Shown here piece by piece: positions 20,794 to 56,690 of a DNA stretch of 64,000 nucleotides. The stretch is from an uncultured Faecalibacterium sp. (GTDB lineage: Bacteria; Bacillota; Clostridia; Oscillospirales; Ruminococcaceae). How positions within the stretch are numbered: the stretch's first letter is position 1; the number at the start of each line of letters is the position of its first letter. The position numbers were made by a program, and so were the translations under genes. The notes beneath the pieces were generated by a model that was given only the letters and a program-made list of their open reading frames with translations, did not search any database and was not told the origin of the DNA. The stretch is from positions 28,325-92,324 of the forward strand of contig UQGD01000003.1 in assembly GCA_900540455.1 (NCBI GenBank), given 5' to 3'.

Positions 20794-21555
20794 ATGAAAC
20801 TTGCAGGAAAAACCGATGTAGGCCGGGTGCGCCAGGATAACCAGGATGATTTCCGCGCAGGGGAACTGCCCGGCGGCGGAGCCTGGGGCCTGGTGTGCGA
20901 TGGCATGGGCGGTGCCCGGGGCGGCCGGGAGGCCTCCCATGGCGCCTGCGATATGATCGAGCGCAGCTTTCAGCAGCAGTACAGTCAGTGTATGCCCGGA
21001 GAGGAGGAGGCGTTTCTCCGCCGGGCAATGGTGGAGGCCAACCGCCAGGTGTTCCAGCGTGCATCGCAGGAGGAAGCGCTGGCCGGTATGGGCACCACCG
21101 CAGTCTGTGCCTTGGTGCGGGGCGGCCGTGCATTCCTTTGCCATGCAGGGGACTCCCGGGCGTATCTGTACCGGGAGGGCAGGCTGACCCAGCTGACCCA
21201 TGACCATTCCTATGTGCAGGAGCTGGTGGACTGCGGCACCATCACCCCGGAGGAGGCAGAGCATCACCCCCAAAAGAACATCATCACCCGGGCACTTGGG
21301 GTGGATTACCGCCTGGATCCGGACACAACGTCCCTGACGCTCCATCCGGGGGATCGGCTGCTGCTGTGCTCCGATGGGCTGACCAACCTTGTGCCGCAGC
21401 CTGCGCTGGAAAAGTTGCTGGCGGGCCGTCAGATCTTTTATGAACTGCCGGATCGCCTGATCGAAGCGGCAAATGCCGCCGGCGGCACGGACAATATCAC
21501 CGCGCTGCTGATGGATACAGAGCCGATGGAGGATGCCTATGGATCTGATCGGTAA
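20794..21555 (+). CDS. stp: PP2C-family Ser/Thr phosphatase
   Basis: The product begins MKLAGKTDVGRVRQDNQD and contains GMGG and DSRAYL motifs. Confidence 0.9.
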   Translation: MKLAGKTDVGRVRQDNQDDFRAGELPGGGAWGLVCDGMGGARGGREASHGACDMIERSFQQQYSQCMPGEEEAFLRRAMVEANRQVFQRASQEEALAGMGTTAVCALVRGGRAFLCHAGDSRAYLYREGRLTQLTHDHSYVQELVDCGTITPEEAEHHPQKNIITRALGVDYRLDPDTTSLTLHPGDRLLLCSDGLTNLVPQPALEKLLAGRQIFYELPDRLIEAANAAGGTDNITALLMDTEPMEDAYGSDR

Positions 21556-23404
21556 AACACTGGATGGACTGTACCAGGTGCAGGAGATGATCGGCACCGG
21601 CGGTATGGCCAATGTCTATAAAGCAGTGGCAGTGGCTCCCGGCGGCCCGGTGCCCCAGGGTACCGTCGTAGCGGTCAAGGTGCTGCGCTCGGAGCTGATG
21701 CACGACCCGGATCTGGTGCGCCGGTTCCAGAACGAGTCCAAGGCTATTTCGCTTTTGAATCACCCCAATATCGTAAAAGTGTACGATGTATCGGTCACAG
21801 ACCAGCTGCAGTACATCGTAATGGAATATGTGGACGGCATGACCCTGCGCCAGTACCTGAACCAGCGCGGGGGCAAACTGACCAGCCGGGAGACGGTGCA
21901 TTTCATCTCCCAGATCCTCAAGGCGCTGGAGCATGCCCACCGCAACGGCATCGTCCACCGGGACATCAAGCCCCAGAATATCATGCTGCTGGATAATGGC
22001 CAGCTGCGGATGATGGACTTTGGCATTGCACGCATCTCCCGGGCCGAAAACCAGCTCAATGGCGGCAAAGCGATGGGCAGTGTACACTACATCAGCCCGG
22101 AGCAGGCGAAAGGAGAGGAGACCGACTGCACCAGCGACCTGTATTCGGTGGGCGTGATGATGTACGAGATGCTCTCCGGTCAGCTGCCCTTTGACGCAAA
22201 GGATGCGGTGGATGTGGCCTTGCAGCAGATCTCTGAGAAGCCGCGCTCCCTGCGGGAGATCGCTCCGCAGACCCCGCTGGGCCTGGTGGAGATCACCGAG
22301 CGGGCTATGGCCAAAAATCCGGTCAACCGCTATGCCAATGCAGGGGAGATGCTGGACGCATTGGACCGCTATGTCCATGACCCGTCCATCACCTTCCATT
22401 ATGTTTATCAGCCAGAACAGGCTCCTGCAAAGGAGGTACAAAAGCCCATGGAACAAAAAAGAGACCGCCGCCAGCCGGATACCAGCTCGGCCCGCCGGCA
22501 GAAAAAGCCCGCTAAAAAGCGTCGCTCTGTTTTTCTGCCCGTGCTGCTGGGCATTACAGTGGCCTTTGCCCTGGCCTGCGGCGCCATGTGCTGGAGCATC
22601 CTGCAGGACTCCAGCAACCTGATGAACGAAAAGACCGATGTTACCCTGGGCGACTACCTGGGGATGACCCGGGACGAGGTGAATGCCCAGCCCCAGGTCA
22701 CCAGCGGACAGATCCTCATCCAGTGGGAAGAGGAGTATAACAACGACTATGCAGCGGGCTACGTCTATCGCCAGTCGCCGGTGTCCGGCCGTACCGTGCG
22801 GGAGGGGCAGACCATCACCCTGACGGTCAGCCTTGGCACAAAATATATCACGGTGCCGGACCTTGCCAACTATCTGCAGACCGATGCAGAGCGTCTGCTG
22901 CGGGAGCAGGGCGTCTCGGTGCTGGTCACCCAGGCAGTGGAGCCTTCGGTAGCCACGGGGTCGGTCATCCGCACCGAGCCTGCAGCGGGCAGCCAGGTGG
23001 CAGCGGGCACGACAGTCATTGTGTATGTCAGCCGTCCGCAGGTAAATACCAGCACCCGTGTACCTGCCCTGGAGGGCATGGATGTCAACGATGCCCGCAC
23101 CCTGCTGGTGCAGAACCGCCTGGGCCTGGGCAGCCAGACCGAACAGTACAGCGATACGCCTCCGGGCACCGTGCTCAGCCAGAGCCCGGAAGCCGGCGCA
23201 TCGGTAAAGCTGAACAGCCGGATCAATGTGGTGGTCAGTGCCGGGCCGGAGCCTGCACCGGAACCGGAAGTCCCCACTACGCCGGAGGATTGGTGGAGCG
23301 GTCTGTTCGGCGGCGGGGCATCTTCCTCCCCGGCAGAGTCTGAAAGCGAACAGCCGTCCAGTACCCCCAGTCTCAGCGACTGGTGGGCTTCGCTGGTAGG
23401 CTGA
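21539..23404 (+). CDS. prkC: Ser/Thr protein kinase with three extracellular PASTA domains
   Basis: An intact kinase domain carries GTGGMANVYKA, HRDIKPQNI, DFG and APE. It is followed by a TM helix and three PASTA repeats. Confidence 0.9.
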   Translation: MDLIGKTLDGLYQVQEMIGTGGMANVYKAVAVAPGGPVPQGTVVAVKVLRSELMHDPDLVRRFQNESKAISLLNHPNIVKVYDVSVTDQLQYIVMEYVDGMTLRQYLNQRGGKLTSRETVHFISQILKALEHAHRNGIVHRDIKPQNIMLLDNGQLRMMDFGIARISRAENQLNGGKAMGSVHYISPEQAKGEETDCTSDLYSVGVMMYEMLSGQLPFDAKDAVDVALQQISEKPRSLREIAPQTPLGLVEITERAMAKNPVNRYANAGEMLDALDRYVHDPSITFHYVYQPEQAPAKEVQKPMEQKRDRRQPDTSSARRQKKPAKKRRSVFLPVLLGITVAFALACGAMCWSILQDSSNLMNEKTDVTLGDYLGMTRDEVNAQPQVTSGQILIQWEEEYNNDYAAGYVYRQSPVSGRTVREGQTITLTVSLGTKYITVPDLANYLQTDAERLLREQGVSVLVTQAVEPSVATGSVIRTEPAAGSQVAAGTTVIVYVSRPQVNTSTRVPALEGMDVNDARTLLVQNRLGLGSQTEQYSDTPPGTVLSQSPEAGASVKLNSRINVVVSAGPEPAPEPEVPTTPEDWWSGLFGGGASSSPAESESEQPSSTPSLSDWWASLVG

Positions 23405-25147: not shown

Positions 25148-25208
25148 CTAATGTGTGCGCAGCAGGAATAAAGTAGAGGGTAAGCGGACAGGAAAGGAGC
25201 GTACATTT

Positions 25209-26726
25209 ATGGAACTAAAGATCTTCCGGGATGCACTGCCGGCGGCAGGGGGCAGCTGTACCGTCAAGGCGGAGCTGCCGCTGGAGACCGAGATCCTGAT
25301 CTCGGACTACCTGCCACCGGTGTTCAAATTGGTAAAATGTTTTGCAAAGCCGGTGGTGCTGCAAAAACAGCTGCAGCCCGGGCGGCTGAGCTTGGAGGGG
25401 TACCTGCGCTGTATCGTCTATTACCAAGGGGAGGAGGGGGCGGGTCTGTGCCAGACCGAGCAAAAGCTCCCCTTTGAAAAATCCCTGGAACTGCCGGTAT
25501 TTGACTTTACAGCCTGGACGGCGGTCGTGGAAGGGGCGACCGAATATCTGAACTGCCGGGTGGTCAACCCCCGCCGCATCGAGGTCAGGGGCGCCTTTGG
25601 ACTGGTGGCGTCGGTGCGGGCGCAGGTCAAGACCGAGGTGATCACAGCGCTGTCAGATGGCGGGGTGGAGCAGCGGATGTGTACGCTGTCCGGCGTCAGG
25701 AGCGTGGCCGTGCAGGAAAAGCTCCTCACCGCAGAGGGGGAGCTGACCTTTCCCCGGCCCCCGGAAGCCATTTTGGATATCAGCGGGACCGCTGCCGTGC
25801 GGGAGGTCAAGCTGCTGGCAGGCAAAGCTGTGATCAAAGGGGAGCTGCAAGCCCAGTGCGCTTGGCGGGCAGAAGGCGAGCCTGGCCTGCAAAGCCAGGC
25901 AGTGACCCTGCCCTTCAATCAGGTGCTGGATGTGGAGGGCCTTACGGAGGAATGTCGGTGTTTGTGTGTGGTGGAGCCGGTGGGGTTCACCCTGGCACAA
26001 GGGGAGGGCGAGGCGACCAGCCTGACGGCTACCGCTATGCTGCACCTCCGGGCCTGGCGCAGTTTTCAGCTGCAATGCACCGCAGATGCCTTCTCTACAA
26101 AATATGAAGCCAGCCTGACCCCCCAGACTGTGCCGGTGGAGGGGCTTGCGTGTCTGCTGGAACAGAACGCCGTGGTCAGCGGTTCCGGGCCTTTGCCGGA
26201 TGCCGGGGCAAAGATCCTGGCCTGTTTTGCTTCGTTTAGCCCGGTCCAGATAAGCAGTCAGGGGGAGGGGTATGCCCTCACTGCCAAGGTCACCGCAACG
26301 GCATTTGCGGAGAATAGCCTGGGTGAGCTGGAAAGCTACGATAAAACCATGGACCTGTCGCTGCCGTTGGAGCTGGCTGCGCCGCCGGACAGTGAGTTCT
26401 ATCCGGAATGTTGGCTCTCGGCAGAAAATCTGCAATGCAGCTGCGCCGGGGGCACGTTGGAGGTGTCGGTAACGGTCCATGCGGAGGGGGCAGTGCTCAG
26501 CCGCAGCACCCAGACCTGTGTGGGTGCCATTGAGCTGGGGGAGCCACTGGCACCCGCAGACCCGGAGATCTCTCTGCGCATCTATTATGCCCAGACCGGC
26601 GAGGCGCTGTTTGATATTGCCCGGCATTACCATGTATCTCCGGGTCAGATGCTGGCGGCCAATCAGTTGGACCCTGCGGTCCAGATACTGGAGGAGCCCC
26701 GCCGCCTGCTGGTGCCGGGGGCCTGA
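25209..26726 (+). CDS. sipL: SipL-like spore coat morphogenetic protein (DUF3794 with a C-terminal LysM)
   Basis: A C-terminal LysM domain, LRIYYAQTGEALFDIARHYHVSPGQMLAANQL, is present. The large DUF3794-like body matches the Clostridial SipL architecture. An AAAGGAG RBS precedes the start. Confidence 0.65.
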   Translation: MELKIFRDALPAAGGSCTVKAELPLETEILISDYLPPVFKLVKCFAKPVVLQKQLQPGRLSLEGYLRCIVYYQGEEGAGLCQTEQKLPFEKSLELPVFDFTAWTAVVEGATEYLNCRVVNPRRIEVRGAFGLVASVRAQVKTEVITALSDGGVEQRMCTLSGVRSVAVQEKLLTAEGELTFPRPPEAILDISGTAAVREVKLLAGKAVIKGELQAQCAWRAEGEPGLQSQAVTLPFNQVLDVEGLTEECRCLCVVEPVGFTLAQGEGEATSLTATAMLHLRAWRSFQLQCTADAFSTKYEASLTPQTVPVEGLACLLEQNAVVSGSGPLPDAGAKILACFASFSPVQISSQGEGYALTAKVTATAFAENSLGELESYDKTMDLSLPLELAAPPDSEFYPECWLSAENLQCSCAGGTLEVSVTVHAEGAVLSRSTQTCVGAIELGEPLAPADPEISLRIYYAQTGEALFDIARHYHVSPGQMLAANQLDPAVQILEEPRRLLVPGA

Positions 26727-51037: not shown

Positions 51038-51489
51038 TGATCTGTGATACACTGGAGCATCTGGGCCGGTATCGCGGCCTGCACAAAAATCTGGACACCG
51101 CACTGGACTTTCTGGCCCGGCAGGACCTCTCCGCATTGCCGATGGGCACGACCCCTGTGGATGGGGAGGAAGTCTATGTGATGCGGATGGAGGCTGAGCT
51201 TCATCCCGCAGAGGGCACCTATCCGGAATACCATCGCATCTATGCGGATCTGCAGCTGGATCTCACAGGCGCCGAGGCTTGGGCCTATGCCAGCGAGCCG
51301 GGGGCTGAGGTGGGAGAGTACCGGGTGGATATCGGTTTCCAGAATAGCCCCGCGGCGCTGAATGGCACACTGGGACAGGGACGGTTTATGCTGTTCTTCC
51401 CGGGGGAACTGCATCACCCTGGACTGTGCAGCCCGGAAAGCACCGCAGTGGATAAGATCGTGATCAAAATCAAAATGGAGGAACAATAA
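51038..51489 (+). CDS. YhcH/YjgK/YiaL-family protein (putative N-acetylneuraminate anomerase NanQ)
   Basis: DUF386 family features are present, EVYVMRMEAELHPAE and HRIYADLQLDL. Confidence 0.75.
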
Positions 51490-52194
51490 ATGGATAAGCA
51501 AGCGTTGTTTGACCAGATCAAGGGCGGGCTGATCGTCAGCTGCCAGGCGCTGGAGCATGAGCCCCTGTATACCAAGGAAGGCGGCGTGATGCCTTTGATG
51601 GCAAAGGCGGCTGCACAAAGCGGCGCAGTGGGCATCCGTGCCAACACGGTGCGGGACATCACCCAGATCAAAGCAGTGGTGGATCTGCCGGTGATCGGCA
51701 TCATCAAAAAGGACTATCCCGGCACCCCTATGTATATCACGGTTACCATGGCAGAGGTGGATGCTCTGGTGGAGTGCGGCGTGGATATCCTGGCAGTACA
51801 GGGCACCAGTGCCCTTCGTCCGGACGGCTCCACGGCAGCAGACTTTATCCGGCAGATCAAGGCTAAGTATCCGCAGCAGCTGGTAATGGCGGATATTGCC
51901 ACTTTGGAGGAGGCTATGGCCTGTGCGGAGGCCGGTGCAGACTTTGTGGGCACCACCATGCGGGGCTATACGCCGGAGACCAAGGGCATTGATGATATCG
52001 ATTTTGCCTTTATCACCGAGCTGACCCAGAAGTGCCCGGCAAAGGTCATTGCAGAGGGCCATATCCACAGCCCGGAACAGGCAGTGCAGGCTCTGCAGGC
52101 CGGGGCTTTTGCTCTGGTGGTAGGCGGTGCGATCACCCGCCCGGCAGAGATCACGGCACGCTTTACTGGTGCGATCCGCGCAATGGAGCAATAA
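51490..52194 (+). CDS. nanE: N-acetylmannosamine-6-phosphate 2-epimerase
   Basis: The product contains LIVSCQALEHEPLY...IRANTVRDI...PVIGIIKKDY. Confidence 0.9.
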   Translation: MDKQALFDQIKGGLIVSCQALEHEPLYTKEGGVMPLMAKAAAQSGAVGIRANTVRDITQIKAVVDLPVIGIIKKDYPGTPMYITVTMAEVDALVECGVDILAVQGTSALRPDGSTAADFIRQIKAKYPQQLVMADIATLEEAMACAEAGADFVGTTMRGYTPETKGIDDIDFAFITELTQKCPAKVIAEGHIHSPEQAVQALQAGAFALVVGGAITRPAEITARFTGAIRAMEQ

Positions 52195-52207
52195 AAAGGG
52201 GGCTGCT

Positions 52208-53131
52208 ATGAAACAGTATCTCGGCATCGATATTGGCGGAACAGCAGTCAAACTGGGCCTGGTGGATGAGCAGGGCCAGGTGCTGGCCCGGCAGGAGCAG
52301 AGCGTTAGCTTTGATGATTATAAGACCCCGATCCTGGATACCGTGCTGGCAGCTGCGCAGCAGTTTGTTGCCGACCATCCGGCAGAGCTTTCCGGTATTG
52401 GCGTATCCGCTACCGGGCAGATCGACAGCCGGAAAGGCATCGTGGCGGGCACCTGCGGCAATCTGCCCAACTATATCGGCAGCCCCATCAAGGCTTCGTT
52501 GGAGCAGGTGTTCCATCTGCCGGTCACAGTGGCAAACGACGCCAACTGTATGACCTTGGGCGAAGTCTGGGCCGGCGCAGCAAAAGGCTATACAGATGTC
52601 ATTGGTGTAACGCTGGGCACAGGTGTGGGCGGCGGCATCCTTACCGGCGGCCGCCTTCTGGAAGGTGCCCGGGGACTGGGCGGCGAGCTGGGCCATTGCC
52701 GGGTCCATGCGCTGGACGGTGTGCTGTGTACCTGCGGAGCTTCCGGCTGCTGGGAGCGCTATGCAGCAACCACGGCGCTGGTGCGCAATGCATCGCCCCT
52801 TGATCCGTCGCTCTGCGATGGCCGGGCGATCTTTGCTGCGGCCAAAGCAGGGGATGTGCGGGTACTGGCTTTGCTGGAGGATTGGATCGATGAGATCGCA
52901 CAGGGTCTGGCCGGGCTGGTGCATATCTTCAATCCGCAGCTGATCCTGATCGGAGGCGGCGTCAGCGCCCAGCAGGAGCTTCTGATCGATCCGCTGGCTG
53001 CCCGGGTCAAGGCATCGGTCATGCCGGCTTTTGCGCAGGGGTTGGAGCTGCGGGCCGCACAGCTGCACAATGATGCAGGTCTGGTAGGTGCAGTCTATTA
53101 TTTCCGCCAAACACAGGAGGCTTTGGAATGA
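52208..53131 (+). CDS. nanK: ROK-family sugar kinase (likely N-acetylmannosamine kinase)
   Basis: The N-terminus LGIDIGGTAVKLGLVD is present. The ROK zinc motif CTCGASGCWE follows. Confidence 0.85.
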   Translation: MKQYLGIDIGGTAVKLGLVDEQGQVLARQEQSVSFDDYKTPILDTVLAAAQQFVADHPAELSGIGVSATGQIDSRKGIVAGTCGNLPNYIGSPIKASLEQVFHLPVTVANDANCMTLGEVWAGAAKGYTDVIGVTLGTGVGGGILTGGRLLEGARGLGGELGHCRVHALDGVLCTCGASGCWERYAATTALVRNASPLDPSLCDGRAIFAAAKAGDVRVLALLEDWIDEIAQGLAGLVHIFNPQLILIGGGVSAQQELLIDPLAARVKASVMPAFAQGLELRAAQLHNDAGLVGAVYYFRQTQEALE

Positions 53132-53766
53132 AAAAACATATTCTCTGCCTGGGGGATTCCAATACCCATGGCTATTGTGCCGACCCGGCTGACTGCGCAG
53201 ACGGAGGCATCCGTTTTAATGAGGAGGAGCGCTGGACCTGTCGTTTGCAGGCAGCGCTGGGGCCGGATTACCTGGTGACGGAGGAAGGACTCTCCGGACG
53301 AACGACCGTGTTCGTGGACCCGCTGCATGAGTCGATGGATGCGTTGTCGGTGCTGTATCCGCTGCTGAAGAGCCATGAGTTCCTGGATCTGCTGGTGATC
53401 ATGCTGGGCACCAACGATGTAAAGGAGCGCTTTGGTGTCAACGCCGTGTGCATTGGCCTTGGCATGGAGCGGCTGCTGCAGCGGGCCAAGAGCATCGATT
53501 GCTGGGGCGGCAAAGCGCCCAACATCCTGGTGGTAGCGCCGCCGCCCATTGGGGAAGGCTTCTGCGACCCCGCTATGGGCGAGGGCTGCGTGGAGCGCTC
53601 CCGCGGCGTAGCAGAACAGCTGCGGCTGGTAGCACAGCGCAATGGCGTGCATTTTGTGGATGCCGCTGCCTGTGAGTTTAACCAGGTGGACCATATGCAC
53701 TTGACCCGTCAGGGACATGCGCAGCTGGCACAGCTGCTGACCGAGACGATCCCCTCGCTGCTGTAA
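53128..53766 (+). CDS. SGNH/GDSL hydrolase (candidate sialate O-acetylesterase)
   Basis: The GDSNTHG catalytic Ser block is present with a GTND block. The last gene of the nan operon overlaps its start. Confidence 0.75.
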   Translation: MKKHILCLGDSNTHGYCADPADCADGGIRFNEEERWTCRLQAALGPDYLVTEEGLSGRTTVFVDPLHESMDALSVLYPLLKSHEFLDLLVIMLGTNDVKERFGVNAVCIGLGMERLLQRAKSIDCWGGKAPNILVVAPPPIGEGFCDPAMGEGCVERSRGVAEQLRLVAQRNGVHFVDAAACEFNQVDHMHLTRQGHAQLAQLLTETIPSLL

Positions 53767-53776
53767 AAACAATAAA

Positions 53777-53814
53777 CACCCCCTGTCCCTGCCGGACAGA
53801 GGGTGTTTGCTTTG
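53777..53814 (+). terminator. Rho-independent terminator after the nan operon
   Basis: The stem caccccctgtcc/ggacagagggtg is followed by TTTGCTTTG. Confidence 0.6.
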
Positions 53815-53916
53815 TCGGGACTGGCTTTCACACAGCCTGCACATCCCCGGCCTGGTTTTTTCCGGTTGGATGTGCTACAATAAAATACAAAGCTGTAATG
53901 GAAAGGGGGAGTCCCG

Positions 53917-55638
53917 GTGGATGCGATCCGCCTGTGTCCCTATTGTCTGCGCCCTGCACCGATCCCTGCATCAGCCTGTCCTCATTGCGCCCACCGGTTT
54001 GCGGGGGTCAATCCGGCGGGCAGCCTGCCTGTGGGCACGGTGCTGGCTGGGCGCTATACCATCGGTGAACTGATCCGCGTTGACGGAGAGGGCATCCTCT
54101 ACCAAGGGGCAGAAAACCACGGTGCTTTCCGCGTGACCGTCAAAGAGTATCTTCCGCTGACCCTTTCTGCCGAGCGTACCGATGGCCTGATGCTGCGTCC
54201 AAAACCCGGCAGCGAGGTGCTGTTCAAGACCACCCGGATGGATTTTGCAGACCTGTACCGTTCCATTCAACGGATCACCCCGGCTAACGGTCTGGAGGCT
54301 GTGCTGGATGTAGTGGAGGCCAATAACACGGTCTATGCTGTGATGGAGAGCCCGGGCGGCCGCCCGCTACAGAAATGGCTGGAGGAACACCCCGGCCCCG
54401 TAGACCCGGCACAGGCACGGGAGATGCTGCGTCCGGTGTTTGATGGTGTGGTCGCTATGCACCGGGTGGGGCTGGTGCACCGGGGGATCTGCCCGGAAAA
54501 TATCCGTGTGTTGGATAATGGCCGGGCACGTCTGGCGGGCTATGCTACCGTGGGGCTGCGCACCGCAGGCAGCGGCCTGCACGAACAGCTGTACGAAGGC
54601 TATTCTGCGCCGGAACAGTATTCCACTGCGGAATTTGAGGGCCGCTATACCGACGAATACAGCCTGGCCGCCGTATTTTACCGCATGGTCTGCGGCCAGA
54701 GCCCGGTTCCGGCAGCACAGCGGGCAGTGTCCGACTCGAACCCACGGGCTAAGACGCTGGAACCGTCGGTGCCGGTCTATGTTTCAGAGGCGCTGCAAAT
54801 GGGTCTGCGGCTCAAACCCGCCGAGCGGATACAGACGGTACCGCTGCTGATGGAGGCCCTGTCCTCGCCAGAAAAGACCGATGAGCTGGCCCGCAGTCTG
54901 CGTTCCATTCCGGAGGAGGGGGAGGCCGGGGCCAAAACAGGCCGTGGGCGGAGACCCTCGGTGCAGACCATATTGACCAGCATTTTGCTTTTGCTGGCGG
55001 TGCTGACGGCGCTGACCTTGTGGAGCATGCTGGGCCGTCTTTCTGCATTGGAGGCCCCTCCTGCATCGTCTCCAGCATCCTCGGAAGCGGACTCCTCTTC
55101 GGTGATCACACAGCCAAAAAATCAGGTACCCAACCTGGTGGGCATCTCCTATGCGCAGGTGCAGAACCATCGGGAGTATACTGGGATCTATCTGTTCTAT
55201 GTTACCGAGGAATACAGCGATGATGTGCCTGCCGGCACGATCCTGCGCCAACAGCCGGAGGCCGGTACACTGCTTCCGGCAGGGGAGACCATCCGTCTTG
55301 TGGTCAGTAAAGGACCGAAGATGGTGGAGATGCCCCAGCTGATCGGTTTCCCGCAGGATAGTGCTGTGCGGGAGCTGGAAAGCCGGGGTCTGGTTCCCAG
55401 CTGCTTTATGGTGTTCAATGATGGGTCCTATGCTTCCGGCTGTGTGGTCTCTGCCAGTGTGGAAGCGGGAACCATGGCGGAAGTAGGCTCCACCGTAGTG
55501 GTGTATATTGCTGCCGACCGGGATGTGCCGGTGTCGGCGGCTCCGGAGGAGCCTGCCGCATCCCCTGCGCCCGCACCGGCCGAGAGCGCCCCGTCAGCAG
55601 AGGAGGGCGCTTCCTCTGCGCAGCAGCTCCCAGAATAA
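53917..55638 (+). CDS. Membrane-anchored PASTA-domain pseudokinase with an N-terminal zinc ribbon
   Basis: A zinc ribbon, CPYC...CPHC, is followed by a kinase-like domain with degenerate catalytic motifs. These are HRGICPENI in place of HRDxKPxN, AGY in place of DFG, and no GxGxxG, while the VTVKEY Lys and SAPE are retained. A TM helix and two PASTA repeats follow, then a Pro/Ala/Ser-rich tail. The start is GTG with an AAAGGGGGAG RBS. Confidence 0.75.
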   Translation: MDAIRLCPYCLRPAPIPASACPHCAHRFAGVNPAGSLPVGTVLAGRYTIGELIRVDGEGILYQGAENHGAFRVTVKEYLPLTLSAERTDGLMLRPKPGSEVLFKTTRMDFADLYRSIQRITPANGLEAVLDVVEANNTVYAVMESPGGRPLQKWLEEHPGPVDPAQAREMLRPVFDGVVAMHRVGLVHRGICPENIRVLDNGRARLAGYATVGLRTAGSGLHEQLYEGYSAPEQYSTAEFEGRYTDEYSLAAVFYRMVCGQSPVPAAQRAVSDSNPRAKTLEPSVPVYVSEALQMGLRLKPAERIQTVPLLMEALSSPEKTDELARSLRSIPEEGEAGAKTGRGRRPSVQTILTSILLLLAVLTALTLWSMLGRLSALEAPPASSPASSEADSSSVITQPKNQVPNLVGISYAQVQNHREYTGIYLFYVTEEYSDDVPAGTILRQQPEAGTLLPAGETIRLVVSKGPKMVEMPQLIGFPQDSAVRELESRGLVPSCFMVFNDGSYASGCVVSASVEAGTMAEVGSTVVVYIAADRDVPVSAAPEEPAASPAPAPAESAPSAEEGASSAQQLPE

Positions 55639-55650
55639 AAAGGAGGGCCT

Positions 55651-56463
55651 ATGACCGAAAAAAGCTACGATACCCCCTGCGGGTCCATCCATTATTGGGT
55701 CAGCCGTGCCGTGGAAAAAGCATATACCCTCGTGTTTTTGCCAGGTCTTACAGCGGATCATCGCCTGTTTGAGCGGCAGCTGGCGTATTTTGCTCCGCGC
55801 TGCCCCGTGCTGGTGTGGGATGCGCCGGGACATGGACGTTCCTGGCCGTTCCGGCTGGATTTTACCCTGATGGAGAAAGCACGCTGGCTGGAGGAGATCC
55901 TGCAGCGGGAGGCTCTGCCCCCGCCGGTACTGGTAGGCCAGTCGATGGGGGGATATGTGGCTCAGGCTTTTATGCAGCAGTTCCCTGGCAGGGCGAAGGG
56001 CTTTGTCTCCATTGATTCGGCTCCGCTGCAGCGGCAGTATGTCACCGGGGCAGAGCTGTATCTTTTGCAGCGGATGGAGCCAGTCTATCGCTGGTATCCT
56101 TGGTCGCTGCTGGTTTGGTCCGGCAGCGTGGGGTGTGCGGTCTCTCCGTATGGTCAGGAGATGATGCGTCGGATGATGGATGCCTATACCGGGGATCGGC
56201 CCCGATATGCGGCATTGGCAGGCCATGGATACAGGATGCTGGCCCAGGCGATGGCGGCAGACCTGCCTTATCGCATCGACTGCCCGGCGCTGCTGCTCTG
56301 CGGCCGGAAGGATCAGGCGGGTTCCACCCGGCGATATAACAAAGCCTGGCATCGCTGCACCGGGATTCCCCTGGTCTGGCTGGAAAATGCGGGCCATAAT
56401 TCCAACTGTGATAAGCCGCAGCTGGTCAATGCCCTGTTGGAGCGTTTTGTGGCCCAGCTGTAA
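55651..56463 (+). CDS. Alpha/beta-fold hydrolase
   Basis: A GQSMGG nucleophile elbow is present. An AAAAAGGAGGG RBS lies 12 nt after the upstream stop. Confidence 0.8.
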   Translation: MTEKSYDTPCGSIHYWVSRAVEKAYTLVFLPGLTADHRLFERQLAYFAPRCPVLVWDAPGHGRSWPFRLDFTLMEKARWLEEILQREALPPPVLVGQSMGGYVAQAFMQQFPGRAKGFVSIDSAPLQRQYVTGAELYLLQRMEPVYRWYPWSLLVWSGSVGCAVSPYGQEMMRRMMDAYTGDRPRYAALAGHGYRMLAQAMAADLPYRIDCPALLLCGRKDQAGSTRRYNKAWHRCTGIPLVWLENAGHNSNCDKPQLVNALLERFVAQL

Positions 56464-56473
56464 GGAGGATCTT

Positions 56474-56638
56474 ATGGAAAACCAGACAGTCATAAACAAA
56501 ACTGTAAAGTCCGGCCTTACCTTTGGCAGTGCCCTGGCAATGGTCATCAGCTATACCACCTGACATTCGGTAGGGTGGGCCATTCTCCATGGTCTGATGA
56601 GCTGGGTGTATGTGCTGTATTTCGTTCTTCGCTACTAA
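56474..56638 (+). pseudogene. Small two-TM membrane protein ORF interrupted by an in-frame TGA at 56561-56563
   Basis: A TAAGGAGGA RBS precedes the start. The product MENQTVINKTVKSGLTFGSALAMVISYTT runs into TGA, then continues in the same frame as HSVGWAILHGLMSWVYVLYFVLRY to stop. Confidence 0.4.
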
Positions 56639-56642
56639 GATG

Positions 56643-56690
56643 CAAAAACCGGGGGCTTTCCACTATGACGGAAAGCCCCCGGTTTTATTT
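56643..56690. terminator. Bidirectional rho-independent terminator
   Basis: The 13-bp stem ccgggggctttcc/ggaaagcccccgg is flanked by an A-run and a T-run. Confidence 0.75.

Follow-up and report, generated by a model that had tools for sequence, protein, structure and literature searches.

We analysed a stretch of 64,000 nucleotides (nt) from an uncultured Faecalibacterium sp. (contig UQGD01000003.1, positions 28,325 to 92,324; hereafter the window), in which the gene at 53917-55638 encodes a membrane protein that joins an N-terminal zinc ribbon and a catalytically degenerate kinase fold to extracellular PASTA repeats. We consider it very probable that this pseudokinase belongs to an old and widespread family of bitopic membrane proteins in Oscillospiraceae-type Clostridia whose phosphotransfer machinery was lost family-wide, that it is a selected and non-catalytic protein, that its kinase-like domain derives from the zinc-ribbon 'KE[YF]xP' (PpkA-like) clade and not from the PASTA kinase PrkC, and that the alpha/beta-hydrolase gene behind it represents, together with a small membrane ORF (open reading frame), a recent and lineage-specific insertion of about 1 kb between the pseudokinase gene and gdhA. 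This account combined with a signalling role linked to PrkC is the explanation that we favour as a whole, with reasonable rather than strong confidence.

The pseudokinase ORF lies on the plus strand, starts with GTG and keeps an intact reading frame of 573 codons. Pfam finds PASTA in two stretches (E = 2.8e-25) and Pkinase over just profile positions 63-202 of 263 (E = 2.2e-14), and both E-values are far beyond chance. The NCBIfam model for PASTA kinases, NF033483, scores 149.2 bits and stays below its curated cutoff of 450; its best stretch (model positions 328-500) is the transmembrane and PASTA part of the protein. The PASTA region also matches the PASTA structures of S. aureus Stk1 (3py9 and 3m9g; phmmer against PDB chains), and the single transmembrane helix followed by extracellular PASTA repeats is the topology of a PASTA kinase. 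The original prediction, made from the sequence alone, had described a PrkC-like protein with a kinase fold, one transmembrane helix and two PASTA repeats. These parts are recovered by Pfam and by the AlphaFold model (helix at residues 349-374), and the profile search for PASTA that had been proposed as a check gave the match above; the likeness to PrkC holds for the topology, while the kinase-like domain belongs with the zinc-ribbon, PpkA-like kinases instead. The predicted Cys4 zinc ribbon is present as C7-P-Y-C10 ... C21-P-H-C24 and modelled as two beta-hairpins (predicted local distance difference test, pLDDT, 81-93). Its Cys positions are invariant in 40 orthologues, several of which have a Zn_ribbon_3 match in Pfam, and C10, C21 and C24 are at least 90% conserved across the diverse family. 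The Pro/Ala/Ser-rich C-terminal tail was also described correctly (residues 536-573, pLDDT <50).

The catalytic motifs were read from a BLASTP comparison with the window's own PrkC, from phmmer searches against PDB chains and from a MAFFT alignment. HRDIKPQN of PrkC corresponds to H188-R-G190-I-C-P-E-N195, in which the catalytic Asp is lost and N195 is present, in agreement with the earlier reading HRGICPENI. The equivalent of DFG is G208-Y209-A210; it had been read as AGY, one residue out of register, and the Asp is absent in either reading. The Gly-rich loop had been called missing, but it is present in a degenerate form (R54-V-D56-G-E-G59), having lost the first two Gly of GxGxxG, kept the third and gained two acidic residues. 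The beta3 Lys (K76 in VTVKEY) and the APE motif (A231-P-E233 within SAPEQ) are retained, as had been claimed. The protein hence does not carry the complete Hanks set of beta3 Lys, HRD Asp, loop Asn, DFG Asp and GxGxxG, and the alignment with the Pfam kinase profile and the PrkC core, suggested earlier as a control, confirms the loss of HRD and DFG.

The kinase fold is nevertheless retained in the predicted structure. An AlphaFold2 model built on an alignment of 84 family sequences has a mean pLDDT of 89 and a predicted template modelling score (pTM) of 0.70, and the kinase-like domain reaches pLDDT 96-98; the two PASTA units are modelled at residues 401-464 and 469-532. The structural core is kept, with the HRD His, the APE Glu paired with the subdomain-XI Arg, and the alphaF Asp. 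When searched against the PDB with Foldseek, the best match is PpkA (5x1r/5hnv; template modelling score, TM, 0.81 and E ~1e-20), followed by S. aureus Stk1/PknB (TM 0.78-0.81) and then by M. tuberculosis PknA and PknB. The structural check proposed with the original prediction thus supports a preserved fold, with a TM of 0.81 to both PpkA and Stk1.

A search for close relatives among 5.8 billion proteins gave 5871 matches at E <=1e-10, and the best 120 of these are all at least 66% identical to the window protein and none of them is named. Two proteins from metagenome assemblies are 99% (P0001) and 91% (P0002) identical. Scanning species-representative genomes yielded 46 loci from Faecalibacterium or Faecalibacterium-like organisms at 63-69% identity, and no match above 69%. 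Given also the window's GC content of about 60%, the DNA probably stems from a Faecalibacterium-related species outside this genome collection. In 40 Faecalibacterium orthologues extracted and aligned with MAFFT, the degenerate motifs are essentially invariant (CPxC...CPxC, DGEG(I/V)LY, (I/V)KEY(L/M)P, HRGICPxN, (A/T)GYAT and YSAPEQY). Identity to the window protein among these orthologues is highest in the kinase-like domain (79-80%) and the PASTA repeats (63-65%), and falls to 45% in the zinc ribbon, 24% in the juxtamembrane segment, 45% in the transmembrane helix, 33% in the linker and 29% in the C-terminal tail. The ratio of nonsynonymous to synonymous substitution rates (dN/dS) was calculated against the 91%-identical sister, for which dS is about 0.4-1.0 across regions: it is 0.018 for the kinase-like domain and 0.036 for the PASTA repeats (dS about 0.6-0.8), 0.115 for the zinc ribbon, 0.165 for the juxtamembrane segment, transmembrane helix and linker combined, 0.36 for the tail and 0.063 for the whole protein. 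The kinase-like domain is the most constrained part of the protein. Because the degenerate domain is at the same time the most strongly conserved one, the protein appears to be a selected, non-catalytic pseudokinase.

The lost catalytic residues and the partial Pkinase match could also be expected from a decaying paralogue of a PASTA kinase, a pseudogene in the making that retains no function. We give this practically no probability, and regard it as excluded because of the regional constraint in dN/dS and identities; the degenerate motifs are moreover invariant in about 40 Faecalibacterium orthologues and recur in the deep family, and the gene has an intact ORF, a strong ribosome-binding site and a confidently predicted fold.

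For more distant relatives, residues 1-340 were searched with HMMER against 1.84 billion representatives clustered at 50% identity, giving 1824 at E <=1e-30. Among the best 150, about 100 are single-domain proteins of 520-700 residues with the zinc ribbon and the motifs HRG(I/V)(S/C)P, G(Y/F)(A/S/C) and (Y/F)(S/A)APEQ. An alignment of 84 diverse members at the 50%-identity level, down to about 25% identity, has Gly (83) or Ala (1) at the position of the HRD Asp. The DFG Asp is replaced by Gly in 72 members and by Ser in four, and is an Asp in six; the position of the metal-binding Asn in the catalytic loop is Thr in 50 and Asn in 28; and the beta3 position is Lys in 39, Arg in 37 and another residue, including Gln, His and Glu, in eight. 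The Gly-rich loop has lost its first two Gly and has conserved acidic residues (D/N56 and E/D58), and Y62, E77, H188, G228, E233, D246, Y248 and R304 are invariant. Pfam detects PASTA in all but one (83/84). Since no PASTA member with an intact HRD Asp occurs among the 84, the loss of catalysis seems to predate the radiation of the family. Members come from Gemmiger, Anaerofilum, Pygmaiobacter, Candidatus Merdivicinus, metagenome-assembled genomes (MAGs) of Oscillospiraceae and one 'Clostridium sp.' MAG, and, where public sources name them, they are called 'PASTA domain-containing protein', 'hypothetical protein', 'protein kinase' or 'serine/threonine-protein kinase'.

Some degenerate kinases are known to work with non-canonical residues (WNK, CASK and E. 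coli YegI), and the family could in principle be active after all, as an atypical kinase or as some other enzyme that depends on nucleotides. K76 is found in all Faecalibacterium orthologues, with Lys or Arg in 76/84 of the diverse members, N195 is kept in Faecalibacterium, an acidic residue occupies position 112 in alphaC in 79/84, and substrates are still assigned in a phosphoproteome paper to CD2148 of C. difficile, which is degenerate in a similar way. However, Asp or Glu stands at the position of the catalytic base in 0/84, the DFG Asp is absent in 78/84, more than half of the members have Thr for the loop Asn (50/84), Gln, His and Glu are tolerated at the beta3 position, and the acidic D/N56 and E/D58 in the Gly-rich loop should repel phosphates. 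We therefore hold enzymatic activity to be improbable.

The kinase-like domain appears to have a different source from the rest of the protein. Its best PDB match by sequence is PpkA (80 bits over residues 35-315), which shares the KEYxP motif after the beta3 Lys, while S. aureus PknB/Stk1 reaches 51 bits in the same phmmer search. Without the zinc ribbon, the domain scores 77-135 bits against the kinase domains of active zinc-ribbon kinases and 59 bits against that of the window PrkC. The best 150 distant representatives include such catalytically intact zinc-ribbon proteins, with GxGGFGITY, AIKE(Y/L), HRDI(S/K)PDN and DFG; in ten that we checked, the additional modules are LRR_5, SH3_3, MORN or FHA, and PASTA is found in none. 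The pseudokinase shares with this clade the CxxC...CxxC ribbon and the Y62/E77/P80 signature, in addition to the higher similarity than to PrkC, whereas its transmembrane and PASTA half is homologous to that of Stk1/PrkC. We read this pattern as a zinc-ribbon kinase lineage that probably lost catalysis and was combined with a PrkC-type transmembrane-PASTA module. Two other readings were considered and rejected. A decayed PrkC duplicate does not fit, because the asymmetry of scores and the shared zinc ribbon and KEYxP motif place the domain nearer to the zinc-ribbon, PpkA-like kinases. Weak NCBIfam similarities to kinases of defence systems and related proteins (MADS6, BREX PglW and lanthionine-synthetase kinases) are far below the cutoffs and reflect generic kinase-fold similarity.

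PpkA, a Thr kinase of Pseudomonas type VI secretion (5hnv/5x1r), is the closest relative of the domain in both sequence and fold (80 bits; TM 0.81). Together with the Firmicutes zinc-ribbon 'GxGGFGITY / KE[YF]xP / HRDISPDN' kinases it has the Y62, E77 and P80 signature, and the Firmicutes proteins share the N-terminal C4 zinc ribbon as well. Unlike the pseudokinase, PpkA and the zinc-ribbon kinases keep HRD, DFG and the Gly loop, and the Firmicutes members have LRR, SH3, MORN, FHA or tandem kinase domains in place of PASTA. PpkA has a von Willebrand-type periplasmic domain and, to our knowledge, no zinc ribbon.

Many of the related zinc-ribbon kinases carry tandem arrays, with one intact kinase domain and one to three degenerate kinase-like domains in the same polypeptide. 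For instance, P0131 has four kinase or kinase-like domains in 1291 residues, and in this protein as well as in P0156, P0176, P0179, P0194, P0200 and others a separate zinc ribbon precedes each domain; the C-terminal modules are LRR, SH3, MORN or FHA. Such proteins seem to represent built-in kinase-pseudokinase pairs within the clade from which the PASTA pseudokinase would derive.

An alpha/beta-hydrolase gene with its own ribosome-binding site had been predicted 12 nt downstream of the pseudokinase gene, which is correct (the site reads AAGGAGG), and a joint function of the two had been deduced from this tight coupling. The downstream gene does encode an alpha/beta-hydrolase fold, with profiles above cutoff (Abhydrolase_6, 71 bits; Abhydrolase_1, 60.8 bits; also Hydrolase_4) and a GxSxG elbow; no specific NCBIfam equivalog reached its cutoff. 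In the window's lineage the two genes are likely co-transcribed, because of the 12-nt gap, the lack of any terminator between them in the terminator scan and the strong terminator at 56645-56686, which probably ends a unit made of pseudokinase, hydrolase and the small ORF.

However, the arrangement does not extend to the family. The set of pseudokinase, hydrolase and 54-codon ORF was found in a single place outside the window, the 91% sister, which has another upstream context. A tblastn search of 51 fetched loci with the hydrolase and seven other window neighbours placed the hydrolase near none of the 46 Faecalibacterium orthologue loci (<=6 kb); two of these (L016 and L017) have gdhA directly after the orthologue, which is the window's arrangement minus the hydrolase. 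A 74% relative (L058) keeps the window's upstream nan cluster and has no hydrolase, a 72% relative carries an unrelated 157-residue ORF in the hydrolase position, and context look-ups of five distant members, among relatives down to about 26-43% identity, found no hydrolase beside the gene. The survey that the original prediction had called for therefore recovered the zinc ribbon, pseudokinase and PASTA architecture repeatedly, and the hydrolase pairing in the window lineage and its 91% sister alone. As a family property, a conserved hydrolase partner is accordingly rejected, with the pairing seen at 91% and not at 74%, 72% or about 26-43% identity.

A functional two-gene module of pseudokinase and hydrolase would be compatible with the short gap, the separate ribosome-binding site and the lack of a terminator between the genes, and also with the conservation of the arrangement in the 91% sister and the purifying selection on the hydrolase (dN/dS 0.09 against this sister). 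We consider it very improbable in view of the 46 loci without the gene, the direct passage to gdhA in two of them and the absence in nearer as well as distant relatives; the hydrolase is in addition a generic Clostridia enzyme, with homologues at 62-71% identity in Oscillospiraceae and Lachnospiraceae. The insertion appears recent and lineage-specific, and the pairing says nothing about the function of the family.

Since the catalytic residues are lost and the domain is still strongly conserved, the family is probably a non-enzymatic signalling partner, and its most likely role is that of a non-catalytic cell-wall receptor or scaffold, possibly one that modulates PrkC. The window contains an intact stp-prkC pair upstream, as had been claimed, at 20794-23404 and about 32 kb away, in a fmt-rsmB-rlmN-stp-prkC-rsgA array at about 17.4-24.3 kb. 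Here stp (20794-21555) encodes a PP2C phosphatase, and prkC (21533-23404) a kinase that matches Pkinase in full (176 bits) and has three PASTA repeats and intact HRDIKPQN and DFG. We propose that the PASTA repeats of the pseudokinase would bind cell-wall ligands of the same class as those of PASTA kinases (lipid II or muropeptides), or alternatively localise the protein to sites of peptidoglycan synthesis as they do in these kinases, and that the cytoplasmic domain would signal by protein-protein contact and not by phosphorylation. The most likely route would be dimerisation with PrkC, the single PASTA kinase of the genome, or the recruitment of substrates to it, and a phospho-switch controlled by PrkC and Stp may act on the conserved R-T-x-x-S/T-E activation segment. 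Cell-wall and division signalling would in this way be tuned, much as CD2148 does for PrkC in C. difficile. Taken by itself, the PrkC-linked mechanism is tentative and falls somewhat short of an even chance.

Mycobacterial MviN, a pseudokinase that is a substrate of PknB and recruits FhaA, and CD2148 offer precedents for such a role. [quoted passage not shown] As described, it is the best functional analogy, being a second membrane-anchored Hanks-fold protein beside a single PASTA kinase that has lost the catalytic Asp; unlike the pseudokinase it has no PASTA domain and Ser for both Asp and Asn, and a zinc ribbon is not reported.

Several conserved positions are in keeping with regulated signalling through protein-protein contacts. 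The Arg of HRD persists in 73/84 family members, and the confidently modelled activation segment is conserved at R215 (80/84), T216 (61/84), S/T219 (70/84) and E220 (58/84). In PknB, R10 and D76 lie in the back-to-back N-lobe interface, through which PASTA kinases are allosterically activated (PMC13434768). Their equivalents in the pseudokinase are R46 (R/K in 77/84) and D131 (D/E in 65/84).

A number of observations weigh against this interpretation. R46 and D131 occur widely among bacterial Ser/Thr kinases and hence are weak evidence for heterodimerisation, and the window PrkC has Leu, not Arg, at the position equivalent to R10 ('DGLYQV' at the PrkC N-terminus, 21533-21580). PknB, StkP and B. 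subtilis PrkC carry Arg-Tyr (PknB R10) there, and the Leu in PrkC against the Arg (R46) in the pseudokinase family may bear on who pairs with whom. The beta3 Lys/Arg and the acidic residue at position 112 could support nucleotide binding; a cation-independent binding by the pseudokinase domain is possible, although the acidic Gly loop argues against it. The assignment to the PpkA-like clade draws on pairwise and profile scores and on shared motifs. As for the genomic context, the pseudokinase gene lies next to stp-prkC in none of the loci examined, and the contexts revealed no conserved partner gene and vary from yebC upstream in two members and ispD/ispDF downstream in two to transporters or gdhA/gltBD in Faecalibacterium. 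In the window and in all sampled loci, the pseudokinase gene has no PP2C neighbour. The orthologue of F. prausnitzii ATCC 27768, for example, stands alone between a TRAP transporter and convergent gltD/gltB, while in L052 and L061 yebC ends 36 nt upstream of the gene within a rplU-rpmA-obg-rsmF-yebC array.

The missing linkage to stp-prkC and the origin of the domain from a non-PrkC kinase clade would both fit a cell-wall receptor or scaffold that is independent of PrkC, in which PASTA localises the protein to peptidoglycan-synthesis sites and the pseudokinase and zinc ribbon recruit other cytoplasmic partners, such as the divisome or envelope-precursor enzymes, without kinase cross-talk. The conserved zinc ribbon could serve as a dedicated interaction module, and in two divergent members, about 26-28% identical to the window protein, ispD or ispDF abuts or overlaps the gene. 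In L054 (8101-8766) and L060 (6850-8019) its start coincides with the pseudokinase stop codon or precedes it by 11 nt, which suggests translational coupling. Enzymes of the IspD family feed isoprenoid lipid-carrier or teichoic-acid pathways, and the linkage is suggestive, if thinly, of a cell-wall sensor. We still regard a PrkC-independent scaffold as unlikely: no partner was found, the ispD linkage occurs in 2/7 sampled distant contexts, from two genomes that have neighbouring accession numbers and may come from one study, and the conserved HRD Arg and R-T-x-x-S/T-E segment suggest phospho-regulation.

A PrkC-linked role can also be extended to a more specific model, which we put forward as a speculation with rather low probability. 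In Oscillospiraceae including Faecalibacterium, a very abundant commensal of the gut, cell-wall sensing might involve two receptors, in which the dead PASTA receptor of separate origin would pair with active PrkC through back-to-back N-lobe contacts and/or co-clustering by PASTA ligands, and would set the activity or substrate choice of PrkC as HER3 does for EGFR. HER3/ErbB3 with EGFR and the plant receptor-like pseudokinases likewise combine a ligand-binding ectodomain, one transmembrane helix and a dead kinase whose action depends on pairing allosterically with an active relative; they have no homology to the PASTA pseudokinase beyond the kinase fold, and the pairing of the latter is a proposal. 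If the two-receptor model were true, it would be the first natural pair of receptor kinase and receptor pseudokinase described in bacteria, and the family would be the eighth conserved family of bacterial pseudokinases.

Compared with known systems, the protein is most similar in layout to the PASTA Ser/Thr kinases (PknB, PrkC, StkP, Stk1 and IreK; NF033483; 'KAPD'), with which it shares the cytoplasmic kinase fold, the one transmembrane helix and extracellular PASTA. It differs from them in the missing catalytic and DFG Asp, the degenerate Gly loop, the N-terminal zinc ribbon, a kinase-like domain nearer to another clade, two PASTA repeats (three in the window PrkC) and the lack of PP2C linkage. 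Seven families of bacterial pseudokinases have been listed (ActPs1-3, GLW, CP1, DYD and DLHK), all without the VAIK Lys and with their main range in Actinobacteria, Proteobacteria or Cyanobacteria, DYD being found in Firmicutes too (bacterial serine/threonine kinase (STK) atlas, 2025 review). The STK atlas associates PASTA only with the canonical KAPD family, and links the crystal structure of the MviN pseudokinase to ActPs3. These families, ActPs1-3 including its MviN/MurJ-linked members, and EssB/YukC are, like the one reported here, conserved bacterial kinase folds without phosphotransfer residues, and several are membrane-anchored and tied to the envelope (MviN in peptidoglycan control, EssB in type VII secretion, T7SSb). 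In contrast to the seven named families, the PASTA pseudokinases largely have Lys or Arg at the VAIK position, and neither PASTA nor an N-terminal zinc ribbon has been described for any of the named families. Membership in a published family was rejected on published descriptions only, given that the signatures (loss of the VAIK Lys, GLW or DYD motifs, COG3899 fusion and taxonomic range) do not apply. In the full-text literature, with subscription literature outside the scope, we found no description of a PASTA-bearing pseudokinase, a zinc-ribbon PASTA protein or a study of the Faecalibacterium protein. Pseudokinases and PASTA receptors are each already known, but a family in a major gut lineage that conserves both together with a zinc ribbon appears to be undescribed.

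PASTA kinases play a central part in regulating growth, division and beta-lactam tolerance of Gram-positive bacteria, and their activation is still debated. A strongly constrained PASTA receptor that is unable to phosphorylate would be a natural experiment on what this receptor class does apart from catalysis, and would extend the short list of bacterial pseudokinases (seven, none with PASTA) by a Firmicutes family. The bacteria that carry the family, Faecalibacterium and its relatives, count among the main producers of butyrate in the human gut, and their envelope biology has been little studied. Recognising the family would also bear on annotation, as members are called merely 'PASTA domain-containing protein' or 'hypothetical', or wrongly 'serine/threonine-protein kinase'.

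Features of the pseudokinase locus and of related genes in the window (coordinates in nt of the window)
Feature	Coordinates	Strand	Basis or remark
Canonical stp + prkC pair	20794..23404	+	Inside fmt-rsmB-rlmN-stp-prkC-rsgA operon; ~32 kb upstream of pseudokinase
DUF386/YhcH	51043-51489		
NanE epimerase	51490-52194		
ROK kinase	52205-53131		
SGNH/GDSL esterase	53128-53766		
GC-rich palindromic hairpin, 15-bp stem	53774..53808	.	Between SGNH-esterase gene and pseudokinase gene; terminator scan
Putative extended -10 promoter element TGcTACAAT	53873..53881	+	Inferred by eye; not flagged by two-hexamer scan
Ribosome-binding site AGGGGGAG	53904..53911	+	Strong; 5 nt ahead of pseudokinase GTG
Whole zinc-ribbon PASTA pseudokinase gene, 573 residues	53917..55638	+	ORF list, Pfam, NCBIfam, protein search, AlphaFold model
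N-terminal C4 zinc ribbon, residues 5-26	53929..53994	+	CPYC...CPHC
Kinase-fold pseudokinase domain, residues 38-320	54028..54876	+	Pfam, motif alignments, AlphaFold, Foldseek, dN/dS
Single transmembrane helix, residues 349-374	54961..55038	+	GRGRR just before (positive-inside); AlphaFold model
Two extracellular PASTA repeats, residues 401-466 and 467-535	55117..55521	+	Pfam, Stk1 structures, model
Disordered Pro/Ala/Ser-rich C-terminal tail, residues 536-573	55522..55635	+	pLDDT <50, poorly conserved
Alpha/beta-hydrolase, 270 residues, GQS98MG nucleophile elbow	55651..56463	+	Pfam, NCBIfam; start 12 nt after pseudokinase stop; AAGGAGG ahead
Small hydrophobic ORF, 54 codons	56474..56638	+	Travels with hydrolase; in-frame TGA at 56561-56563
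Strong terminator, 17-bp stem	56645..56686	.	Common to convergent gdhA; terminator scan

The small ORF behind the hydrolase gene has no match in Pfam. It is intact in the 91% sister (L056 7556-7720: MEKQTIVHKTVKSGITFGSALAMVISYTTWHSVGW...), which has TGG (Trp) at the codon that is TGA in the window, and the window frame beyond the TGA is otherwise preserved. The TGA may stem from a nonsense mutation or a sequencing error, or it may be read through.

Directly upstream of the pseudokinase gene lies a sialic-acid-type catabolic cluster of overlapping or abutting genes (51043-53766), which also precedes the orthologue in the 74% relative L058; its SGNH/GDSL esterase (53128-53766) could be a sialate O-acetylesterase. 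The hairpin at 53774-53808 probably separates the transcription units of esterase and pseudokinase. It was scored as a terminator on the minus strand only, where no upstream gene needs one; the T-run that follows the palindrome in the plus-strand reading is weak.

The closest relatives belong to Faecalibacterium, which is described as non-sporulating, and the framing of the pseudokinase as part of a spore-former's signalling is doubtful, a point that leaves the main conclusion untouched. At 25155-26726 the window encodes a 523-residue protein that combines two SipL/SPOCS domains with a LysM-like C-terminus. In Clostridia, SipL takes part in sporulation (coat assembly), and the gene would be unexpected in a non-sporulating relative of Faecalibacterium.

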